64,000 bases of DNA, from sequence record MW822008.1. One strand, 5' to 3'. How positions within the stretch are numbered: the first letter of the stretch is position 1; every line of letters starts with the position of its first letter. This document shows positions 44,031 through 61,378 of this stretch, one piece after another. A program made the position numbers and the translations under genes. This DNA comes from Escherichia phage BF17. A model generated the notes under the pieces. That model did no database searches and had not been told where the DNA came from. It saw only the letters and a list, made by a program, of their open reading frames with translations.

Positions 44031-44258
44031 ATGAAAGTAATTCAAGTTATGGTAGAAAAATACCAAACTGAAGATGGTCGTATTTTTGATTCAGCTAAAC
44101 AAGCTGAACACCATGAACGTATTATTTCTGGTGCACGTAAAGTATGTCCTACATGTAATGGAACACAACAAGTACCGTCAGAAGATTACCGCAGCTTTTA
44201 TGCTTGTCCACACTGTGATGGGAAAGGCTACGTAGAAAAACAAGAGGTATGGAAATGA
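44031..44258 (+). CDS. zinc-ribbon small protein
   Basis: CPTCNG ... CPHCDG. Confidence 0.5.
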   Translation: MKVIQVMVEKYQTEDGRIFDSAKQAEHHERIISGARKVCPTCNGTQQVPSEDYRSFYACPHCDGKGYVEKQEVWK

Positions 44259-44668
44259 AATTGTATTGCTTAACTAATATGTACTGCCAAGGTGTCCAAG
44301 CTGGTATTCAAGCATTCCATGCTGGTGTTAAACTAATTAAAGAATATGAAGGTACTGCTTTCAGTACTATTATTGATGAATGGTACTATGAACACGAAAC
44401 TATTGTAGTACTAAATGCTGGTGGACATGATAAGTTAAATTCTTATTATAACAACCTTAGCAAACAGGGAAAAGTTCCGTTTGCCAAATTCAATGAAGCT
44501 GGATTGAATGATGCTATTACCTGTGTAGCAGTACTGTGTACGTCTGAAATGATTGAAGACATGGCTGTTATGCGTATGAATCTTCCTGCTGGTGATCAAC
44601 TAATGCAAGTAAAATATGGTGCATTGTTTGACACATTAAAAGCAATCAGCACAATGAGGACAATTTGA
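44249..44668 (+). CDS. hypothetical protein
   Basis: 139 aa track ORF. Confidence 0.5.
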   Translation: MEMKLYCLTNMYCQGVQAGIQAFHAGVKLIKEYEGTAFSTIIDEWYYEHETIVVLNAGGHDKLNSYYNNLSKQGKVPFAKFNEAGLNDAITCVAVLCTSEMIEDMAVMRMNLPAGDQLMQVKYGALFDTLKAISTMRTI

Positions 44669-45878: not shown

Positions 45879-47297
45879 ATGAGCATTTTAGCAATTCTTG
45901 AAAGCATTAAAAATACTAGCAGTACTCTGGGCAAAAAGGCTATTCTTGAACAAAATAAAGATAATGTAACTTTACAAAAAGTACTGAAATATACTCTAGA
46001 CCCTTCTATCGTTAGTGGCTATAAGAAGCTCCCTGCCGCTGATGACGTATATCAACATATGACGTTAGATGAAGCAATTGATAAGCTAGAATGCATTTAC
46101 AAGCGTGATGTGACAGGAAATGCGGGGCGTGATTTCATTGCTTCAGTACTGGGTTCTGTATCTGAAGATGATCAGGAAGTTCTACGTAGAATGCTCACTA
46201 AGAACCTTGATTGTGGTATTCAGGAGAAGAACTGCAATGATGTGTTTGGTAAAGGATTCATCAAAGACGAACCATATATGCGTTGTTCTTTGATTGACAA
46301 AAAGACTGCAAAGAACATCAACTTCAAAGATTATGGTTACGCTATATCAGAAGTGAAAATGGATGGTCAGTACTTAAACCACGTTGTCATTAATGGTTCA
46401 TTAACTTCTACATCCCGTAATGGTAAACTATACGACTTCCTGGGTTGTCGTGATGGTGAGATGGCAGGTCTTGCTCACATCATCCAAAGTAAAGATGAAC
46501 GTTTTAGTAGTGGTGTAGTCTTTATGGGGGAAGGTGTAGTACTGGACAATGATGGAGAAACCATTCTCCCACGCACTACTGGCAACGGTATAATTCAGAA
46601 AGCTGGTAAAGATAGCATCAGTCAGAATGAAGCAATGCGTACTGTATTCGTTCTATGGGATGTTGTTCCATATGATGCATTTTGTGAAGGTGTATGGGAT
46701 GTAAAACGTAAAGAACGTCGCGAGATCTTAGTAGATGCAATTAACGAACTCAATAGTGATTTTGTTCGTATGGTTGGATTCCGTAAAGTTCTAAACATCA
46801 AAGAAGCATTTGAGTACAATAGTGAACTAATGAACGAAGGTGAAGAGGGTTCAGTACTGAAATGTGAAGATGGTATCTGGAAATCTCATACTTCACCTAA
46901 GCAGTTGAAAATGAAATTGAAAATGCAACTGGACTTACGTATTGTTGGTTTCAATGAAGGTGAAGGTAAACGTAAAGGAAGCCTAGGTTCTTTACAACTG
47001 GAAAGTGCTTGTGGTTCATTGAAAGTTAATGTGGGTACTGGTATCAAAGAGAAAGATGCTGAATGGACATTTAAAACCATTTGGGAAAGAATGCAAGAAC
47101 TTATTGGTAAAGTGGTTACAGTTGAGTGTAATGACATTGTATTCGACAAGCGTACTGGTGAGCCATCACTGTTCTTACCAGTGTTTATTGAATTTAGATT
47201 TGACAAAAACACTTGTGATGATTATACTCGTATCTTAGAAATTCGTGAGAGTGCTGTTGAAGTGTTCTCAAACAGTATTATTGACGCATTAGGTTAA
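45879..47297 (+). CDS. ATP-dependent DNA ligase (T4 gp30-like)
   Basis: Aligns with T4 DNA ligase: KKAILEQNKDN N-terminus, adenylation Lys in KMDG, C-terminal LFLPVFIEFRFDK. Confidence 0.95.
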   Translation: MSILAILESIKNTSSTLGKKAILEQNKDNVTLQKVLKYTLDPSIVSGYKKLPAADDVYQHMTLDEAIDKLECIYKRDVTGNAGRDFIASVLGSVSEDDQEVLRRMLTKNLDCGIQEKNCNDVFGKGFIKDEPYMRCSLIDKKTAKNINFKDYGYAISEVKMDGQYLNHVVINGSLTSTSRNGKLYDFLGCRDGEMAGLAHIIQSKDERFSSGVVFMGEGVVLDNDGETILPRTTGNGIIQKAGKDSISQNEAMRTVFVLWDVVPYDAFCEGVWDVKRKERREILVDAINELNSDFVRMVGFRKVLNIKEAFEYNSELMNEGEEGSVLKCEDGIWKSHTSPKQLKMKLKMQLDLRIVGFNEGEGKRKGSLGSLQLESACGSLKVNVGTGIKEKDAEWTFKTIWERMQELIGKVVTVECNDIVFDKRTGEPSLFLPVFIEFRFDKNTCDDYTRILEIRESAVEVFSNSIIDALG

Positions 47298-47316
47298 CCA
47301 TTTATTGGAGGTGATT

Positions 47317-48108
47317 ATGAAATTTGTTGTAACATCTGATGTACACGGTGGGACTGATTACCTCCATAGTGGTGATTACAGTGATACAGTACTGATTATT
47401 GCTGGGGACTTCGATGAAGTTAAACGCAGTCGTTACCGTACTGGTATAGAATCACTATGTAAGCAGTTTAAGAATGTAGTACTGGTTCCAGGCAATCATG
47501 AATATTATGGTTCCAATATCCACAAAACGCATAAAGTACTGTCCGATATGCAAGATGAGATTCCAAATTTCATCTTTTTGCAAAACAAATTTGTATGGCT
47601 GGACGGAGTACTGCTTGTTGGTAGTACTCTGTGGACAGACTTCGATAAAGGTAATTCTTTGACGAAGTTTGATGCTCGTCTGAAGATGAACGATTACAAA
47701 CATATCCGTCATGGAACAACATCAGAGCCTTGGCGTAAGAAACTGACACCAGATGATACTGAGTTTATGCATCACAAAGATAAACAATTTATCAAAAATT
47801 CTATTGACACAGTTCGCTTTATGCATGATAATGATTTCAAGGTCATCGTGGTTACCCATCACGCACCAAGTTATCAAAGTGTTTCACCAAAATATAAAAA
47901 TGATTCACTGAATGGTTGTTACTGTTCCGATATGGATCAGTACATTGAAGATTTGGGTGCTGATGTTTGGATTCATGGTCATGTTCATAGTAGTTTTGAC
48001 TACCACATTGGTAAGACACGTATCATTTGTAATCCACGAGGCTATGAATCATACAGTGGAGCTTGTGAGAATTTTGATTACAATCCTAAATTTGTATTTG
48101 AAATTTAA
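47317..48108 (+). CDS. calcineurin-like metallophosphoesterase
   Basis: Track ORF 47305..48108; ATG 47317 after GGAGG; motifs DVHGG, GDFDE, GNHEY, GHVH. Confidence 0.8.
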   Translation: MKFVVTSDVHGGTDYLHSGDYSDTVLIIAGDFDEVKRSRYRTGIESLCKQFKNVVLVPGNHEYYGSNIHKTHKVLSDMQDEIPNFIFLQNKFVWLDGVLLVGSTLWTDFDKGNSLTKFDARLKMNDYKHIRHGTTSEPWRKKLTPDDTEFMHHKDKQFIKNSIDTVRFMHDNDFKVIVVTHHAPSYQSVSPKYKNDSLNGCYCSDMDQYIEDLGADVWIHGHVHSSFDYHIGKTRIICNPRGYESYSGACENFDYNPKFVFEI

Positions 48109-48974: not shown

Positions 48975-49670
48975 ATGGTTGAACAATTCATGTTTGGTGG
49001 TTATGCTAATGGCGAAGTACGTAACATTTCTATTCCTTACGTAGTTGAGAAAGTTAATGGTTCAGAACGTACATATGATCTAGCATCTCGTATGATGCAA
49101 GACCGTATCATTTTCCTTGATACTGATTTCAATGATCAAATGGCACATATCATCAAACAACAATTGGTATGGTTAGACTCACAAGGTGATTCCCCTATTA
49201 CATTCTACATTAGTTCACCGGGTGGTTCAGTACACGCAGGTTTGGGTATTGCAGATGTTGCTAAGTCTTGTATTTCGCCAATTCGCACTGTAGTAATGGG
49301 CTATGCAGCATCAATGGGTTGCTATACACAATCTGTTATTGGGACTAAAGGTTTCCGTTTAGGTGGTAAACGCTCATACTTCATGTGTCACCAAGTAAGT
49401 TCTGGTACACAAGGTCTAATTACAGACCAGAAGATTTCCCTACAACATTCTGATGCACTGAATACATTGTTGACCAAAGAAATTGCAGAAGCTGTAGGTG
49501 TATCACATGAACAATTACTAAAAGATGCTGACCGCGATTTGTGGTTAAATGCAGAAGAAGCACTTGAATATGGTGAACATGGTTTCATTGATGGTATTAT
49601 TCTTGGTCCACGTAACGAAGAAGGCAAGTACTTAGTTAAGCGTCGCGGTGGTGTAGAAGAGTGGGTGTAA
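48975..49670 (+). CDS. clpP: ATP-dependent Clp protease proteolytic subunit homolog
   Basis: Aligns with bacterial ClpP: SPGG, Ser in AASMG, His in CHQ, Asp in DADRD. Confidence 0.9.
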   Translation: MVEQFMFGGYANGEVRNISIPYVVEKVNGSERTYDLASRMMQDRIIFLDTDFNDQMAHIIKQQLVWLDSQGDSPITFYISSPGGSVHAGLGIADVAKSCISPIRTVVMGYAASMGCYTQSVIGTKGFRLGGKRSYFMCHQVSSGTQGLITDQKISLQHSDALNTLLTKEIAEAVGVSHEQLLKDADRDLWLNAEEALEYGEHGFIDGIILGPRNEEGKYLVKRRGGVEEWV

Positions 49671-51132: not shown

Positions 51133-51628
51133 TACTAATATCTGGTTAGATAACATAATCAAGACATTAGAATTAATTAAACTTACATTACAAAAAACTA
51201 CTGATATTGAAATTAATATTAAACAAGAAATATTAAACTATTATCATAGAAACAAATATAGCACGTTTATCTCTAAATTAATTTATGGATTATATGATAT
51301 TGAAGATATTTGCATCGGTTACAGTACTGGTATTTGCTTCACAGTTAATGGTTTAAAAAATGATTTAAATTTCAGACTTTCCGATGAAGAGCAAGATTTT
51401 CGTAGATTTTGTGATAATATTATGGATACAGATAAAATTACATTTGTTATTGAATTAAATCAAACGTGGTCTACATATGCAGATAAACCATTTGAAATTA
51501 ATGAAACAGATGTGTTAAACTATATTCGAGTTATGAAAATTCATGATTTGTGTAAAAACGCATTGTTAAGTATTGGAGCTTATAATGAAACATACGACTT
51601 GGTTGAAGATAGCAGAAGTAGTTGCTGA
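51104..51628 (+). CDS. hypothetical protein
   Basis: 174 aa track ORF; overlaps cd start by ~44 nt, 3' end uncertain. Confidence 0.45.
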   Translation: MKYTHLSIDDTNIWLDNIIKTLELIKLTLQKTTDIEINIKQEILNYYHRNKYSTFISKLIYGLYDIEDICIGYSTGICFTVNGLKNDLNFRLSDEEQDFRRFCDNIMDTDKITFVIELNQTWSTYADKPFEINETDVLNYIRVMKIHDLCKNALLSIGAYNETYDLVEDSRSSC

Positions 51629-52064
51629 GGAAAGTAAATGTATTTCACAAAAAGTTGGTTGTGTTATTGTTAAAAATAACCGAGTATTGAGTACTGGATA
51701 CAATGGTACTCCATCAAAACAACCAAATTGTTGTGATGTGAATCAACACTTAGTCAATGATGGACGTTTTCAAGACTGGGTTAGTGATGAAGCAAAGCAT
51801 GAACATCATGAGTGGAGTAATATTCATGAAATCCATGCTGAAATGAACGCTTTACTCTATAGTTCTCCTACTGAACGTCAAGGTGCTACTCTTTACACAA
51901 CACTACAACCATGTTATACTTGTTCTAAGTTGATCGCAGGTAGTGGAATTTCACGTGTAATTTATCTCAAAAATTATCCTCGTACACCACCAGAAGCTAT
52001 TAAAGTACTGGAAGATGCTGGAATTATTGTTAATTGCATTTATGATAAGGGTCTTGATAAATGA
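51585..52064 (+). CDS. cd: dCMP deaminase
   Basis: Track ORF 51573..52064; ATG 51585 after GGAG; zinc motifs HAEMNA and PCYTC; N-terminus aligns with T4 Cd. Confidence 0.9.
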   Translation: MKHTTWLKIAEVVAEESKCISQKVGCVIVKNNRVLSTGYNGTPSKQPNCCDVNQHLVNDGRFQDWVSDEAKHEHHEWSNIHEIHAEMNALLYSSPTERQGATLYTTLQPCYTCSKLIAGSGISRVIYLKNYPRTPPEAIKVLEDAGIIVNCIYDKGLDK

Positions 52065-52348: not shown

Positions 52349-52726
52349 TTAACCAGGGAGGTTACAATAATACAAATCCCAAGGGTGATATTTCATCGCA
52401 CCAGTACTCAATTTAATTTTATGAAACTGGAATGATTCGGCAAATGCACTATCGTCAATCTTAATACAAAAAGTGTTTTTGGCTAGAGTTGGTGCAATTT
52501 CCAATGCTGTTTTAGATGCATCTAATCTAATTTTATCTTTATCATAACTAGTGATAGTTACAAAACGATAAACATTAAAATCAGTATCAATGAGATCGTA
52601 AACACAACTAGAACGTTGATTAAAGATGTTCAAGTTATATTTCAATTCACCGTTTATATTAGCTGCGGTTACACAAAACCCGCCGATATTGAATGGTAGT
52701 TTACCTTGTGCTGCGATAGCTTTCAT
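52349..52726 (-). CDS. hypothetical protein (only convincing minus-strand gene)
   Basis: 125 aa; AAGGA RBS upstream of start on minus strand; intergenic space both sides. Confidence 0.55.
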   Translation of the reverse strand: MKAIAAQGKLPFNIGGFCVTAANINGELKYNLNIFNQRSSCVYDLIDTDFNVYRFVTITSYDKDKIRLDASKTALEIAPTLAKNTFCIKIDDSAFAESFQFHKIKLSTGAMKYHPWDLYYCNLPG

Positions 52727-52915: not shown

Positions 52916-52950
52916 TTATATCTTCCTAAACAAAATTGAGGACTTGTTAT

Positions 52951-53559
52951 ATGAAAAGACTATGGCTTGAAGTGATACAAGCAGCAATGTTTCTATTGTT
53001 AATAAATTTTCCAGCCAGTGCTGGTATTGAAAGTAAAAATGTGATAAAGTATAATCCTGAAACCCGAAATGTATATTTCATATCAGATATTACAGATGGG
53101 TCACTCAAGAGAATGATAGAGTTGTATGATAAAGAACACTATGATACCATCACAATTACATCTCCTGGTGGTGATTTTGATGCAGGTATTCGAATGGCAA
53201 ACTTTGTTAGAGACAATGGGATAAATTTAATTGTTTCTAGGTATTGCAATTCAGCATGTACTGTGGTATTCTTTAGTGTATCTCCCGAAAAGCGATATAT
53301 GACAAATCGCTCAGTACTGGGTCTTCATAACATTTCGATTAAAAGTAATGTTACTGATGGTGATAATTCATTTGTGTCTGTAAGACAGTTATCAACTTTT
53401 ACCGAAGAAATGGCAACAAAGGTAGGTTTCCTTTTTTCACTATATGCAGCAAATGGAATCCCACCAGAAGTTCTATTTAGAGTTAGTCGTTCTCGTGGTG
53501 AAGATGTTGTAATATTAACAAAACCAGAACTGGTTTTTTACGGTTCAGTCAAACAATAA
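52951..53559 (+). CDS. secreted ClpP-fold serine peptidase-like protein
   Basis: Track ORF 52936..53559; ATG 52951; signal peptide MKRLWLEVIQAAMFLLLINFPASA; SPGGDFDAG motif, candidate Ser (CNSAC) and His (GLHN). Confidence 0.55.
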   Translation: MKRLWLEVIQAAMFLLLINFPASAGIESKNVIKYNPETRNVYFISDITDGSLKRMIELYDKEHYDTITITSPGGDFDAGIRMANFVRDNGINLIVSRYCNSACTVVFFSVSPEKRYMTNRSVLGLHNISIKSNVTDGDNSFVSVRQLSTFTEEMATKVGFLFSLYAANGIPPEVLFRVSRSRGEDVVILTKPELVFYGSVKQ

Positions 53560-53629: not shown

Positions 53630-53890
53630 ATGACAAACATCCAAAACTTGACATCTATTATTTTTTATGCTACTGTAGTAATGTATGCTACAGTTATTTT
53701 TCTAACAGTTTTCATTTACAAAGATTATCGTAATGGCTTTATTGATTCAACTACAATGAAGTTCAATTCAAAATTCGAAGCAATAATTTATTATGTACTA
53801 TCAACTTCATACTTGGTGTGCCTAATGTTGTTAGGAGCACTAATTTATATCTTATACACAACATTATTTGCAATTGGAGCTATTTTATGA
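53630..53890 (+). CDS. small membrane protein
   Basis: 86 aa, two hydrophobic helices. Confidence 0.5.
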   Translation: MTNIQNLTSIIFYATVVMYATVIFLTVFIYKDYRNGFIDSTTMKFNSKFEAIIYYVLSTSYLVCLMLLGALIYILYTTLFAIGAIL

Positions 53891-54480
53891 CCTGTATTAT
53901 TGCACACACTAACGGAGTAAGTTCTTTTATTGCTGGGGATAAGTTAGGAAGCAATGGATTTACAAAAACTGTTCAAACTGAACCAAAGGTATTCGAGAAA
54001 GAATTTATCAAGTTACATGATGATGGACTAACTAGAACTAAAGAAGTAATGGCATTGGGTTATACTACATCATTTCGTATGGGTCAGTTGTTAAATTATA
54101 ACCTTAATTTACCTGAACAAGATGCTAGTCAAACATTTTCACAATATTTGGTTCTTAAAGTTATTCCAATTATTCGTCAAATGTTTAAAGAAGAATGGGG
54201 TGCACGAGATGCATCACAAGATGTAGGTGGTGGACAATTTATCATTCTCCACAATCATACAATCTATGAAGTTCAAGAAGACTTTTCAGTACTACAACCT
54301 AAAACAAGAATTACCGCAGTAGGTAGTGGGACATATCATGCAATTGCAGCAATGCAAGCATATATTGAAGTTGAGAACGAATCTAAAAAACCACTACACG
54401 AACGTATCAAATCAATTTTTAAAATTGTTAGTGATAATGTAACAAGCGTAAGCGAAGAGTTTGATGTTTTAAAATATTAA
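53887..54480 (+). CDS. HslV/proteasome beta-like Ntn-hydrolase peptidase
   Basis: Track ORF 53818..54480; ATG 53887 overlaps upstream stop; Thr2 after Met; IAGD and AVGSGTYHAIAAMQAY align with HslV. Confidence 0.6.
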   Translation: MTCIIAHTNGVSSFIAGDKLGSNGFTKTVQTEPKVFEKEFIKLHDDGLTRTKEVMALGYTTSFRMGQLLNYNLNLPEQDASQTFSQYLVLKVIPIIRQMFKEEWGARDASQDVGGGQFIILHNHTIYEVQEDFSVLQPKTRITAVGSGTYHAIAAMQAYIEVENESKKPLHERIKSIFKIVSDNVTSVSEEFDVLKY

Positions 54481-54507: not shown

Positions 54508-54702
54508 ATGATGGCATACACAATTTATGAATGGGTTTTGAGTTTTTTTATAGTTTTTTCTATTGTTGTAATTTATAACAATACTAAATGCTTATATAGG
54601 GACTTGAAATCCAATGGTTATCACAAAGATAATAATTTTATGTATGCCTATCATATTGGAATCATTCTGTTATTATCAATATATTTAATTGGTTTTTTAT
54701 AA
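54508..54702 (+). CDS. small membrane protein
   Basis: 64 aa, two hydrophobic helices. Confidence 0.45.
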   Translation: MMAYTIYEWVLSFFIVFSIVVIYNNTKCLYRDLKSNGYHKDNNFMYAYHIGIILLLSIYLIGFL

Positions 54703-54711
54703 GGATTGAAT

Positions 54712-55464
54712 ATGATATCAGAAAAATTTATAAGCAATGAAGGTAAAAAGCGATTACTGATTATATCAGGTGCAGGACTTTCTGTTGAAAGTGGTATGGA
54801 ACCTTTTCGATTTGATGATGGTTTGTGGGATACATTTAAAATTAATGATGTATGTAACATTGCTAGTTTAACTACAAAATATCATGTTGTTCATTCTTTC
54901 TATAATACATTACGTGTAAAATTGGGACAATGCGAACCGAATGCAATGCATTATTTTATAAAATCGTTAGAAGATCAATATGGTGATTGCTTCCTTCATA
55001 TGACTTCTAACATGGACGATCTTTATACTCGTATTGGTGGTCATGAGCTTAAACTTCATGGAAACTTGTGCGAAGTTATTGAAAATTATAGTATCAATTC
55101 CGATGATTATAATGTTATTAACTGCGGATACGAACCATACATACCAAAACATGATGTTTTTGCTAAACCAAATGTAGTAATGATTGGAGAATATCATCGT
55201 TATGTTGATGGTATTCGCTTACCAATTTACGAAGAACGAAATAATGTGTTGAAATCTCTTAATGAAAATGATACAGTTATTGTAATTGGTAGTAGCGATA
55301 CAGTACTGGTATGGTCGAGATTAGCAGCAGCATTACCATGTTATAGTGTTAATGTTAACATTCGTAAAAATGATAATGATTTTTTGTTTAATGAAAAAGT
55401 TATCAAGCCAGCAACCAAAGCAATACCGCATCTAGAGACTATAATTAAGGAACGTATGAAATGA
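54712..55464 (+). CDS. Sir2/CobB-family sirtuin-like protein
   Basis: Track ORF 54706..55464; ATG 54712 after AAGGA; GAGLSVESGMEPFR, catalytic His LHGN, VIVIGSS; aligns with CobB. Confidence 0.8.
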   Translation: MISEKFISNEGKKRLLIISGAGLSVESGMEPFRFDDGLWDTFKINDVCNIASLTTKYHVVHSFYNTLRVKLGQCEPNAMHYFIKSLEDQYGDCFLHMTSNMDDLYTRIGGHELKLHGNLCEVIENYSINSDDYNVINCGYEPYIPKHDVFAKPNVVMIGEYHRYVDGIRLPIYEERNNVLKSLNENDTVIVIGSSDTVLVWSRLAAALPCYSVNVNIRKNDNDFLFNEKVIKPATKAIPHLETIIKERMK

Positions 55465-56012
55465 GTGTTAAAGAAGTTCCCTTTGGTGAATATGGCACAC
55501 GTGCAAATTTTGTATTTTGTTATTTCTTTGCAAGAAAATGCAACCCTTACAAAAACTATGAGTTGAATGATATACCAGAAGTAAATTTAGTATTACTGCA
55601 ATTACGATGGGATGGTCTTCTTGGTGGATGTGGTGGAACCGTAGAAAGTACTGATATCTCACTAGAAGATGCGTTGCGTCGTGAAGTTCAAGAAGAAATG
55701 GATTACAATATTTTTGTTTCCCATCTTCGACCACTCAAAACTTTTGAAATTTACCCAGGTGCAAACAGTCACAGTTTTAGCTATGAAGTAACCTATGACG
55801 AGTTGAAACACATTAGAGATGGATACACTAATGCTAAACATGCAAGTGCAGAAGTTGCTGGTGTAAATTTATGTCATATTTCTCGTTATTCTAAGGGACA
55901 AAATCGAGAAGCGGGATATAATAATCTTATGACACAGAACTTCATCGGTACAGCAAAACAAGAATTGGAGTATCTGGTTCAAAAAGAAAACTTACTAATT
56001 AGTTATCTATAG
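55461..56012 (+). CDS. Nudix hydrolase
   Basis: ATGA-coupled to the sirtuin gene; Nudix box GGTVESTDISLEDALRREVQEE. Confidence 0.7.
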   Translation: MSVKEVPFGEYGTRANFVFCYFFARKCNPYKNYELNDIPEVNLVLLQLRWDGLLGGCGGTVESTDISLEDALRREVQEEMDYNIFVSHLRPLKTFEIYPGANSHSFSYEVTYDELKHIRDGYTNAKHASAEVAGVNLCHISRYSKGQNREAGYNNLMTQNFIGTAKQELEYLVQKENLLISYL

Positions 56013-56021
56013 GAGTTTAAC

Positions 56022-56342
56022 ATGTCTTACTCAATGTTTTTGGATGATATTCGTGATGCAAATCTATATTATCCAAACCAAGATATGGTGGTATGTCGTG
56101 ACTTTAAAAGTGCATGTGAATATGTTATTGAAAATGGAATTCCAGCATTTGTATCATTCGACCATGACTTGGGTGATGTGAGCGAAGACGAAAAGACTGG
56201 ATATTCTTTTGCTAAGTTTCTTATTGATTATATGTTTGATAATAATATTAAAGAACCGTTTGAGTACTTTGTTCACAGTAGTAATCCTGTTGGTAAAATT
56301 AATATTGAAACATACTTAAACAATGGATTTAACGCATTATGA
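56022..56342 (+). CDS. hypothetical protein
   Basis: 106 aa track ORF. Confidence 0.5.
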   Translation: MSYSMFLDDIRDANLYYPNQDMVVCRDFKSACEYVIENGIPAFVSFDHDLGDVSEDEKTGYSFAKFLIDYMFDNNIKEPFEYFVHSSNPVGKINIETYLNNGFNAL

Positions 56343-56641
56343 TTCAAACACACATCAAAAGTCTTATTTGTACTGTTCTGTTAGGTGCAGGAGTTCTTTG
56401 GTTCGGACAGTATCACGAGAACACTAAGCGTACCAACATTCACTACAATACCGCAGAAGTTGTTAGTTTAGGACAATGTAGCGAGTCCAAATGTTCATTT
56501 ATGTATAAAACCCAAAGTGGTGAAGTACGTAATGGACTATCAAGAGAACCAGTTTCAATTGGTCAACTTGTTTACCAGGAGTGCTGGGAAGAAAAGGTTC
56601 GAGGTTCACGTTGCTATGTTGAATACGAACCAAATATGTAA
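56339..56641 (+). CDS. membrane-anchored Cys-containing protein
   Basis: N-terminal hydrophobic segment; four Cys. Confidence 0.5.
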   Translation: MIQTHIKSLICTVLLGAGVLWFGQYHENTKRTNIHYNTAEVVSLGQCSESKCSFMYKTQSGEVRNGLSREPVSIGQLVYQECWEEKVRGSRCYVEYEPNM

Positions 56642-56701
56642 TAATCCGAGTCAATAACATTAGTCGAGTACAAGGATGTACTCATAACTCAAGGATGTTT
56701 T

Positions 56702-58141
56702 ATGAAAAAATATACAATTGACACAAACGTACTACTATCTGACCCGAATGCATCTATTGCTTTTGATGGTGCTGCAATCATTCTACCATTTACAGTACTG
56801 GAAGAATTGGATTCAATTAAGAGTCGTAATGTAGATGTTTCACGCGATGCTCGTGTTGCTATTCGTAACATTGAAGCAATTATTGCAGATGCATCACATG
56901 ATGAGATTAGTAGTACTGGTGTTAATATTGCTGATGTTCATACCAATATGAATCCTGATAGCAAATTGTTTGTTATTACAAACGAAGAAGCTGAAGCACT
57001 AATTCGTACTAAAGGTTCAGAAGAGAAAGTTCAAACCCTTCTCAAAAGCACAGTACCTGATGATAAAATCATTCTGGTAGCTTTAGCAACAGAATCAGTA
57101 CTGGTAACTCGTGATATCAACATGCGTATCAAAGCACTAAGTTATGGTGTCGAGGTACAAGATTATCGCCATGATATTGTTATTGGTGATAGTGATTTGA
57201 TTCACATTGGTCAACACCATTTGGAAATTAATTTTTGGGAAGTATATAGCAACTTATCCAATACTAATATTCAATCCGAACAAGTTGGTCGTCGTTTGTA
57301 TCATTACATTTCTAAAAGCTTGATTGAACATTTGCTTCCACAAAATCTATGCATCGGTGATTATCTATATGATGATGCAGACGTATTATTTGTGTACGAA
57401 GGTCAATCAGCAATTGAGGAAGATGATGGAACACTAACACCAGAAGATATTTTGGTATTCCAAGATATTGGACAATCAGTAGCTTTACGTGCTAAAGTAT
57501 GGGATATTAAAGCAAAGAATATCCAACAAGCACTCGCCATCAACAGTATTCTCGATCCTGATGTACATCTAACAGTACTGCTAGGTTCTGCTGGTACTGG
57601 TAAAACACTAATTACGATTGCTACTGCATTAGAATTAGTACTGGAAAAACGTAAATACGACCGAATCATCTTCTCTAAAACTCAAGACTCACAGTTTGAA
57701 GATATTGGTTTCTTGCCAGGTTCAGAAGCAGAAAAAGTGATTCCATTCTGTGGAGCCGCAATTGACGCGTTAGAGTTTCTTCATAAAGATGATGCTAACC
57801 CACAAGGTAGTATTGAAGAGATTATGAAACGTAATGTTATTCAATTTAAAGCACTAAACTTTGTACGTGGACGTTCATTCACCAACACTATTCTAGTAGT
57901 TGATGAATTCCAAAACATTACACCTGCACAAGCCAAAACAATCTTGACACGAGCAGGATTAAACTGTAAAGTAGTAATTATGGGTAACTTGAGTCAGATT
58001 GACAGTAAGTTTATTAGTCCTGTTAACAGTGGTTTGACATATGTAACTGAGAAGTTTAAAGATTGGGCAGGTTGTCGTGTCATCGAACTTGAAGGTGTTG
58101 TTCGCTCACCACTAGCTGAATTTGCTGAAGAAAATATGTAA
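56702..58141 (+). CDS. phoH: PIN-domain PhoH-like ATPase (PhoH2 type)
   Basis: N-terminal PIN-like region (DTNVLL, LEELD); Walker A GSAGTGKT; Walker B VVDEFQN. Confidence 0.88.
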   Translation: MKKYTIDTNVLLSDPNASIAFDGAAIILPFTVLEELDSIKSRNVDVSRDARVAIRNIEAIIADASHDEISSTGVNIADVHTNMNPDSKLFVITNEEAEALIRTKGSEEKVQTLLKSTVPDDKIILVALATESVLVTRDINMRIKALSYGVEVQDYRHDIVIGDSDLIHIGQHHLEINFWEVYSNLSNTNIQSEQVGRRLYHYISKSLIEHLLPQNLCIGDYLYDDADVLFVYEGQSAIEEDDGTLTPEDILVFQDIGQSVALRAKVWDIKAKNIQQALAINSILDPDVHLTVLLGSAGTGKTLITIATALELVLEKRKYDRIIFSKTQDSQFEDIGFLPGSEAEKVIPFCGAAIDALEFLHKDDANPQGSIEEIMKRNVIQFKALNFVRGRSFTNTILVVDEFQNITPAQAKTILTRAGLNCKVVIMGNLSQIDSKFISPVNSGLTYVTEKFKDWAGCRVIELEGVVRSPLAEFAEENM

Positions 58142-58144
58142 TAT

Positions 58145-58178
58145 TGTATGGGACATTATGTCCCATACATGATATAAT
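58145..58178 (+). promoter_or_regulatory. 25-bp perfect palindrome abutting TGaTATAAT -10
   Basis: 11-bp stem tgtatgggaca / tgtcccataca with 3-nt loop (58145-58169), then TGATATAAT (-10 at 58173-58178). Confidence 0.45.
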
Positions 58179-58209
58179 GTTGTTATCATACTACAGAAGG
58201 AGATATAAA

Positions 58210-58398
58210 ATGGCTAAACAACCTAAGAAAAAAGAACCAGTAGCAAAAGTTAAGAAAGAGAAAGTTATTCAATCTAAAGAACAACGTATGTACGAACAAC
58301 GTAAGAGTGAAACCCTATCCGGTCTACAAGCTCTACGCAAACAAGGTGTACTAACTCGTGCACAGTACCGTGAACTAGTAGCTCAGAAAGGTTTTTGA
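58210..58398 (+). CDS. small basic protein
   Basis: Track ORF 58144..58398; ATG 58210 seven nt after AAGGAG; Lys-rich N-terminus. Confidence 0.5.
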   Translation: MAKQPKKKEPVAKVKKEKVIQSKEQRMYEQRKSETLSGLQALRKQGVLTRAQYRELVAQKGF

Positions 58399-58502
58399 TT
58401 CATTTGAAGACATATTGTGGAGTTCTTAATAAATACTTTTATAAGAATAATAATACTTTTTATTAAATTAAAAAGAACTCCATGTGTTATTTCAGTTTTT
58501 CG

Positions 58503-58529
58503 TCCCTGTCTTTTGGCAGGGATTTTTTA
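58503..58529 (+). terminator. intrinsic terminator
   Basis: ccctg...caggg hairpin followed by ATTTTTT. Confidence 0.5.
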
Positions 58530-58624
58530 TATCTATATCTTGACAAAAGGAACAAATCATGAGAACATGTATTAAAGGAAGAATGACTTTCCATTAGGTT
58601 ATTTTAACTTAAAGGAGATTTCAT

Positions 58625-59182
58625 ATGTTTTTTGACCAAACATTTACGTTGTATCACGATTCTGGTAAAGTTGAGATTATTGATAATCTGTTAGAGTACA
58701 TTGCGGAACATGACGGTATAGACCGTTTCCACAGTAAGATGAAATTCGATTTAGCTGAATTCAACAAAAAGAATCGTGAAACATTTTGGAAGAACCGTTT
58801 CTATTACGAAATGTATCCAGAAAAGTTCGTAGGTTATTATCTTTGTACTGAAAAAGGATTACTTGTATCTCCTGATTTACTTATGGGTGAATACATGATA
58901 CTCTATAATGAGTACTGGGAACATAAACGTAAAGCTCGTGATAAGGAATGGCGACATAAGCGTTCGTATATGTACAAACATAACCACTCCCGATACAAGC
59001 GTCCTAAGACTCAGCAAGAGCGTCGTATGGCTTGTGCAGTACTGAAGGATGAGGGGGAACCTGAAATACGTGGAAGACGTAAGATGCGTTCATTACCATC
59101 GTATTGGGACGATATCAGAACAAGACACAGTACTGGCTGGAAATACAGTACTAAACGTAAACATCAATACAAAGGGAGCTAA
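58625..59182 (+). CDS. basic protein, Lys/Arg-rich C-terminal half
   Basis: AAAGGAG RBS; 185 aa. Confidence 0.55.
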   Translation: MFFDQTFTLYHDSGKVEIIDNLLEYIAEHDGIDRFHSKMKFDLAEFNKKNRETFWKNRFYYEMYPEKFVGYYLCTEKGLLVSPDLLMGEYMILYNEYWEHKRKARDKEWRHKRSYMYKHNHSRYKRPKTQQERRMACAVLKDEGEPEIRGRRKMRSLPSYWDDIRTRHSTGWKYSTKRKHQYKGS

Positions 59183-59209
59183 TGCTCCCTAATTTTATAG
59201 GTGAACTTT

Positions 59210-60406: not shown

Positions 60407-61378
60407 ATGAAAACTAAAATTATTTCTGAACAAAAAATTGGCAATACTACAGTACTGAATCTTGAAGTTCAAGGTCTTAGTAATGTTCGTTCTCTTACGG
60501 TTTGTACTCAGAGAGATGATTTGACTGATTTCTATAGCTCAGAATACATGTCAGAAGAACCTTGGGATATGGGATGGTTGGACGGTAGTAGTTATATCAG
60601 TTCACGTTATAGTTTTGGTTCTCATGAAAATATTGAACAATTAAAAAATGAGTATATTAAACTCAGTGATACTATTGAAATGAAAGAAGAAGATTGTGTA
60701 GAACTTTTCATTTTTGAATTCGATGCCGGAAATGGTAATTCATTACTAGTAAGTAATATTGAAGAACATTTAATGTATCATGAAATTGAAGATGTAGATT
60801 TTGAAAGTATTAAAAATGTTGTTCATATGGTTGGTGGTAGTATTACTGATGATTCAGATATCGGTCATAATATTTCACTGTGCTTAATTTCTCATCCAAA
60901 AACTCGTGGTTTTAAAGTTCCACAAGATGAAACTTACGTGTCTGAAACTGCTGATGAAGGAATTTATCCTTGGAATGATTATGTAGAATACTATGGTCAT
61001 TTCTGTTCTGATACAAAAGAACTGAAAAAAGGCGAACAATATTTTGATATGTTCCGTGCTGCACAGCGTTTAGTACTGAATAATACTGAACTATTTCCTG
61101 ATCGCGGCGAAGAAAATATGATTGATATTATCTTCAAGAACTATGATTATGTACAGAACATTCCTGATAATGTACATTTGGAATATGTTCACAGTTCTTC
61201 AAACAAATTCTATAATATTGAATTGAATGCTCCAGTGTGTGAAGTAATTATTGAGTACGGTGCTATTGGTAAAACCAGTACTACTGATGGTGAAGAATTC
61301 GAAACTATTGAAGAAGCACGTAAGTTCTTCGAGAAGAAAGTAATTTCCAAAATTAAAAGTGGTTATAGCCCAAAATGA
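60407..61378 (+). CDS. hypothetical protein (323 aa)
   Basis: Track ORF. Confidence 0.6.
   Translation: MKTKIISEQKIGNTTVLNLEVQGLSNVRSLTVCTQRDDLTDFYSSEYMSEEPWDMGWLDGSSYISSRYSFGSHENIEQLKNEYIKLSDTIEMKEEDCVELFIFEFDAGNGNSLLVSNIEEHLMYHEIEDVDFESIKNVVHMVGGSITDDSDIGHNISLCLISHPKTRGFKVPQDETYVSETADEGIYPWNDYVEYYGHFCSDTKELKKGEQYFDMFRAAQRLVLNNTELFPDRGEENMIDIIFKNYDYVQNIPDNVHLEYVHSSSNKFYNIELNAPVCEVIIEYGAIGKTSTTDGEEFETIEEARKFFEKKVISKIKSGYSPK

Follow-up and report, generated by a model that had tools for sequence, protein, structure and literature searches.

PhoH is among the genes most widely used as phage markers or cited as phage 'auxiliary metabolic' genes, and to our knowledge no phage PhoH has a demonstrated function. 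Among the closest described systems is mycobacterial PhoH2, in which a PIN_4 ribonuclease (RNase) is joined by a connector to a C-terminal PhoH ATPase. This protein is an ATP-dependent RNA helicase and a sequence-specific RNase (PMC7390352; Andrews & Arcus 2015, 2020), is regarded as a probable hexamer and is accompanied upstream by a small partner, PhoAT, and the coupling of 5'->3' RNA unwinding to RNase activity is known for the mycobacterial enzymes only (PMC7390352). In phages, PIN-PhoH proteins are described in a 2017 classification of PIN domains, and a 2021 survey of 224 jumbo phages noted that jumbo-phage PhoH may come joined to a PIN endoRNase at its N-terminus, called the role of PhoH 'enigmatic' and suggested the clearing of jammed ribosomes or post-transcriptional regulation (PMC7824862). 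Here we focus on one such gene, located at 56702..58141 on the + strand of a 64,000-nucleotide stretch of Escherichia phage BF17 (sequence record MW822008.1; hereafter the window). Judged by its predicted architecture, its product is a phage member of the PIN-PhoH family (PhoH2, COG1875; PIN_4.COG1875 group), and we consider it likely that it would act in infection as a PhoH2-type enzyme that unwinds and degrades RNA at the expense of ATP.

The open reading frame (ORF) runs from ATG to TAA and encodes 479 amino acids, with a computed mass of 53.19 kDa and an isoelectric point (pI) of 4.8. In PHROGs, the product matches phrog_2765 ('PhoH-like') from end to end (E 4e-163), and the match to the generic short-PhoH family phrog_170 is confined to residues 265-473 (E 9e-59). 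A preliminary description of this DNA had proposed an N-terminal PIN-like region of about 150 residues fused to a PhoH ATPase, and the Pfam search that it called for bore this out. A PIN_4 nuclease domain (PF13638) spans residues 4-156 (56711..57169, + strand; E 7e-20, 72 bits, full profile 1-132 of 132), and PhoH (PF02562) matches residues 269-473 (E 7e-44, 150 bits) of a P-loop ATPase domain comprising residues 269-479 (57506..58138, + strand), both above their respective gathering scores of 21.9 and 27 bits. Between them lies a middle domain (residues 157-268; 57170..57505, + strand), which is beta-rich and acidic (pI 4.3). The motifs were followed in an alignment of 18 sequences, consisting of the query and 17 phage or bacterial homologues, with identities ranging from 76% for a Klebsiella jumbo phage down to 44-45% for chromosomal proteins of marine Gammaproteobacteria. 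The PIN acidic residues, to which the preliminary description had drawn attention, are D7 (DTN), E35 and D37 (ELD), D120 and D138 (TxDIN), and all five are invariant, as are Walker A G295-x-AG-x-GK301 (here G295-SAGTGKT), GFLPG 336-340, RGRS 389-392, Walker B D401-E402 with Q404, and R417. The C-terminal part thus has the Walker A and B motifs, conserved arginine and GFLPG of a PhoH ATPase, a domain related to the first RecA-like domain of superfamily 1B (SF1B) helicases, and nothing in the conserved motifs suggests that either the PIN or the PhoH domain is degenerate or inactive. In the predicted structure, the N-terminal domain has a PIN fold, with a clade-specific helical insertion of about 20 residues (roughly 93-117), and it superposes on SMG6/EST1A and other PIN_4 endonucleases with a root-mean-square deviation (rmsd) of 2.0 Å over 118 residues at 26% identity, the motifs around E35/D37 and D138 being aligned; SMG6/EST1A, unlike the phage protein, are eukaryotic nonsense-mediated mRNA decay factors without an ATPase fusion. 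The sequence-only match of the PIN segment to the PDB is not significant alone (E 0.35); it pairs VLVTRDINMRIKAL with VLLTDDRNLRVKAL of SMG6, and IILPFTVLEELD with LVVPLIVINELD, and the local alignments to the PIN motifs of SMG6 and TTHA0540 agree on the active-site residues.

The phage protein shares with PhoH2 of M. tuberculosis and M. smegmatis the order of nuclease, connector and ATPase as well as the catalytic motifs, but is about 45 residues longer because its PIN and middle domains carry clade-specific insertions, has no PhoAT-like partner gene upstream, is encoded by a lytic jumbo phage and has been detected in virion preparations. Chromosomal PIN-PhoH proteins ('PhoH family protein', COG1875) of Pseudoalteromonas, Thalassotalea and Colwelliaceae have the same architecture and motifs and are 40-42% identical to it across 99-100% of its length; that the homology to bacterial PIN-PhoH extends over the full length is thereby a direct observation, alongside the domain identities, predicted folds and motif conservation described above. 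The marine gammaproteobacterial proteins lack the PIN helical insertion of about 20 residues and part of the middle domain, and their genes stand alone, for example beside rapA in Pseudoalteromonas. The family is also shared with other phages (PHROG 2765: the RaK2-like jumbo phages RaK2, GAP32, CBB and Erwinia Eneladusvirus, as well as Vibrio phage henriette 12B8 and Klebsiella Slopekvirus KMI9), among which a Sir2-Nudix-cREC neighbourhood, considered below, is found in the RaK2-like lineage only. Short PhoH proteins, such as PhoH of T4-like cyanophages and PhoH/YbeZ of E. coli (PHROG 170), have a homologous ATPase domain but lack the PIN and middle domains, so that nuclease activity is not expected of them. 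Assignment to this nuclease-free class (PHROG 170/PRK10536, about 200-350 residues) was rejected, the protein having 479 residues with a PIN and a middle domain and scoring 93 bits with PRK10536 against a cutoff of 380. These comparisons favour the earlier suggestion of a putative nuclease/helicase-like protein rather than the short PhoH, with RNA as the substrate proposed by analogy. No second phoH copy was found in the window by tblastn.

Homologues are abundant, with more than 4,300 matches at E<=1e-5 among 5.8 billion proteins, and PF13638 and PF02562 occur together on nearly all of the best 120 matches, chromosomal proteins included. A match to PhoH occurs in 3,688 of 50,697 phage records; the long PIN-PhoH form, defined as a match covering at least 80% of the query, is present in 298, and about 3,400 records match residues ~270-475 only. 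Since Pfam confirms PIN_4 with PhoH in two smaller phages, henriette 12B8 of Vibrio (107 kb) and KMI9, a T4-like Slopekvirus of Klebsiella, the fusion is not a speciality of jumbo phages. The region 54700-59200 is 99.4-99.6% identical to jumbo coliphages of the Asteriusvirus type with genomes of about 350 kb (PBECO4, phAPEC6, SP27, G17, Sharanji and others) and 98% identical to 121Q; the protein itself has a 100% identical equivalent in phage SHEFM2K and differs by one residue (S186T) from phAPEC6 gp341c, its counterpart. In near-identical phages the gene is annotated as 'PhoH-like protein', 'ATPase' or, in phage ph0011, 'PINc domain-containing protein'. PIN-PhoH is therefore an already described family, annotated in near-identical genomes and noted in jumbo phages, and not a new one; as a sequence observation, the present gene adds nothing beyond the GenBank annotation and the two published surveys.

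The reading that we favour, an RNA-unwinding and RNA-degrading enzyme, would work as follows. By analogy with mycobacterial PhoH2, the PhoH ATPase would assemble on single-stranded RNA, and ATP would drive 5'->3' unwinding or translocation; the strand would then be handed to the PIN active site and cleaved by the metal-dependent PIN_4 RNase. Its targets during infection could be host or phage transcripts, or stalled ribosome-mRNA complexes. The RNA substrate, the coupling of helicase to nuclease, the oligomeric state and the biological target are all carried over from the mycobacterial enzymes, and several points weigh against so direct a transfer. The top NCBIfam match is NF053827, 'RNA 5'-3' helicase PhoH2', and because it reaches 152 bits against an equivalog cutoff of 680, the protein is, by this measure, no orthologue of the PhoH2 enzymes so far characterised and may differ from them in substrate specificity. 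No recognisable RNA-binding fold was found in the middle domain (residues 157-268). In addition, the nearest ATPase folds after PhoH itself are those of the DNA helicases RecD2 and Dda, and for this reason the substrate might conceivably be DNA. We know of no biochemically characterised PIN-PhoH from a phage, and the detection of the protein in virion proteomes, to which we turn now, could reflect co-purification instead of true packaging.

Gp341c of phAPEC6, listed as a 'PhoH-like protein' of 53.21 kDa, was found with 8 unique peptides and 30.9% coverage (PMC7247149, Table 1) among the 62 proteins of caesium chloride (CsCl)-purified phAPEC6 particles (PMC7247149). This detection allows, without proving, that PIN-PhoH is packaged and delivered with the genome, and it gives some weight to an alternative that we nevertheless regard as unlikely, namely that the protein is an early effector which is packaged, injected with the DNA and acts on host RNA in the first minutes, either in host shut-off or by destroying RNA parts of host defences, possibly in cooperation with the neighbouring nicotinamide adenine dinucleotide (NAD+), ADP-ribose and cyclic-phosphate genes (Sir2, Nudix and cREC). 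The CBB paper also mentions PhoH among the proteins detected in RaK2 particles, but the main text of the primary RaK2 paper does not, so that for RaK2 the only source is this second-hand mention; mass-spectrometric detection, moreover, is no proof of packaging or ejection. A further gene of the window also has a counterpart in the phAPEC6 virion proteome. It lies at 52349-52726 (125 residues), where it alone among genes of any size interrupts a long + strand series from the minus strand; it has no Pfam match, and its counterpart gp347 was detected with 8 peptides and 75.2% coverage (PMC7247149). Its product is probably an abundant small virion protein.

The other support for an early effector comes from the genes upstream, a co-directional block recognised by Pfam and PHROG matches at 54706..56641 on the + strand. 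It comprises Sir2 (54706-55464), a Nudt16-like Nudix hydrolase (55461-56012), a cREC 'cyclic-phosphate processing receiver' domain protein (56022-56342) and a 100-residue protein (56339-56641; PHROG 14661, 'membrane protein') with an N-terminal transmembrane segment and four conserved cysteines. The order Sir2-Nudix-cREC-small protein-PIN-PhoH recurs in three related loci, L004, L005 and L006, whose PhoH2 proteins are 68%, 48% and 46% identical to the one described here, and is thus kept where that identity has fallen to 46-48%. The Erwinia-phage lineage has Nudix and cREC as a single fusion protein of 302 residues (L004, 3718-4626), which argues that these two work together. In these relatives Acb1, an anti-CBASS 2H phosphodiesterase, and NAMPT usually lie a few kb further upstream of the block; no Acb1 was found among the window ORFs scanned at ~52.9-54.5 kb (52936-53559 and 53818-54480). 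The synteny is, however, limited to one phage lineage and explicable by common descent. Sir2-Nudix-cREC is absent beside the PIN-PhoH genes of Vibrio phage 2.275.O, where only NAMPT occurs, about 3 kb away, of henriette 12B8, where the neighbours are ribonucleotide reductase genes, of Slopekvirus KMI9 and of Pseudoalteromonas. Functional coupling of PIN-PhoH to Sir2, Nudix and cREC was therefore not adopted and the arrangement was treated as synteny, the linkage being absent in unrelated phages and Pseudoalteromonas and most readily accounted for by common ancestry of the RaK2-like phages. The preliminary description had placed the gene next to the Sir2-Nudix pair and a palindrome-controlled basic protein gene; the pair does lie upstream, and the palindrome and basic gene lie 3', but two genes, those for cREC and the 100-residue membrane protein, intervene before PhoH. 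The fuller version of the early-effector idea, in which RaK2-like phages package and inject a protein that attacks host or immunity RNA at genome entry and forms one unit with Sir2, the Nudt16-like Nudix hydrolase and cREC, is more doubtful again; such a unit might process, for example, NAD-capped, ADP-ribosylated or 2',3'-cyclic-phosphate RNA ends. If true, this would for the first time give a phage protein of the PhoH family a defined biological role.

Compared with these readings and with the RNA-directed enzyme that we favour, a role in DNA processing appears quite improbable. Here an SF1B- or PINA-like ATPase would act on DNA, and the PIN domain would cleave particular DNA structures that arise in replication or recombination. 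The resemblance of the ATPase to RecD2 and Dda, mentioned above, would fit such a role, but the only characterised members of the family act on RNA, the PIN domain falls in the PIN_4/VapC-SMG6 RNase group, and the TM-score to 5f4h is only 0.21-0.23. A Foldseek comparison of the whole predicted model with the archaeal PIN-ATPase structures 5f4h/5yww gave E 2.5e-9, with a TM-score of 0.21-0.23 and an rmsd >20 Å. Archaeal PINA, a PIN-ATPase-KH Holliday-junction helicase, was rejected as an identification, the two proteins failing to superpose over their full length and the ATPase here being of the PhoH type; on this model, the Foldseek match is a resemblance of plan, not of membership.

A toxin-antitoxin or superinfection-exclusion module, in which a PIN-PhoH toxin would be restrained by a small partner and used against competing phages, can practically be set aside. 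In its favour, PIN-PhoH of cells has been described as the toxin of a toxin-antitoxin pair, with proposals of this kind for PhoAT-PhoH2 of mycobacteria and SYNW1946/1947 of Synechococcus; cyanophage Syn9 is restrained by a PIN-PhoH operon of its host Synechococcus WH8102 (PMC5490813); and a gene of about 100 residues always lies directly upstream in close relatives. Against it, that upstream protein has a transmembrane segment and four conserved cysteines and nothing to suggest antitoxin features, no homology to it was detected in L006 or the Vibrio phage, the Pseudoalteromonas homologue stands alone, and the matches in PADLOC are no better than weak P-loop similarity. Homologues of the 100-residue protein in close relatives are 44-47% identical. 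A PhoAT-like antitoxin was accordingly rejected for this membrane-anchored-looking, cysteine-rich protein with homology in close relatives only, and so was membership in a PhoAT-PhoH2 or VapBC-like type II toxin-antitoxin class, as no antitoxin partner was recognised and the downstream gene has its own promoter. Against the PADLOC-DB defence models, PIN-PhoH gave matches at the P-loop level only (Nhi, E 3e-7; AbiO, E 5e-6), with no stretch passing alone, and Sir2, Nudix, cREC and the small protein gave none; an assignment to a defence system on this basis was rejected as P-loop noise.

The PIN-PhoH gene is preceded by a 5' leader, read directly at 56666..56695 on the + strand, in which a hairpin (GAGTACA-AGGA-TGTACTC, 56666-56683, with a 7-bp stem) is followed by a Shine-Dalgarno sequence, AAGGA, at 56691-56695, 6 nt ahead of the ATG. 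There are two copies of the 8-mer AAGGATGT in 56666-56699, one within the loop and 3' arm of the hairpin and the other forming the ribosome-binding site, and the hairpin with its AAGGATGT repeat could be a putative translational control or RNA-processing element. A promoter scan of the + strand found no sigma-70-like site anywhere in 56300-57400, the 60-nt gap before PIN-PhoH included, and this gene is therefore probably co-transcribed with the upstream genes. Four bases past the stop codon begins a near-perfect 25-bp palindrome (58145..58169), TGTATGGGACAT-T-ATGTCCCATACA, with 12-bp arms and a central T, unique in the window where 0 chance matches are expected. It overlaps the -35 of a promoter-like site, GGGACA-17-TATAAT with a TG extension (58150-58178), whose extended -10 is TGATATAAT (58170-58178). 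The gene that follows (ATG at 58210, stop at 58398; PHROG 24119) encodes a strongly basic, lysine-rich protein of 62 residues, with 17 K+R against 6 D+E by inspection, and a terminator-like hairpin stands after it at 58502-58523. The palindrome belongs to this gene and not to PhoH2; it looks like a candidate operator for a dimeric regulator, and it could also serve as a putative 3' RNA hairpin of the PhoH2 transcript.

Further upstream, a PTH2-type peptidyl-tRNA hydrolase is encoded at 44249-44668, an ATP-dependent DNA ligase at 45879-47297, a calcineurin-like phosphoesterase at 47305-48108 and a ClpP protease at 48975-49670. The product of 52936-53559 is a second Clp-like protein, the likeness being very weak, with a signal- or transmembrane-like N-terminus, and the ORF at 51573-52064 shows by eye an HAE...PCxxC deaminase motif of the dCMP deaminase kind. 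At 60407-61378, a protein of 323 residues ends in a WGR domain (E 1.4e-10), which is familiar above all from poly(ADP-ribose) polymerases; with its gene some 2 kb downstream of Sir2, Nudix and cREC, it may be a further member of the region's NAD+/ADP-ribose theme.

For the PhoH family as a whole, the long PIN-PhoH form is the only version of PhoH with a clear, testable biochemical prediction, namely that of an ATP-driven RNase. Since this coliphage grows on laboratory E. coli, and since the protein has been seen in virions, it offers a practical entry point for that prediction.
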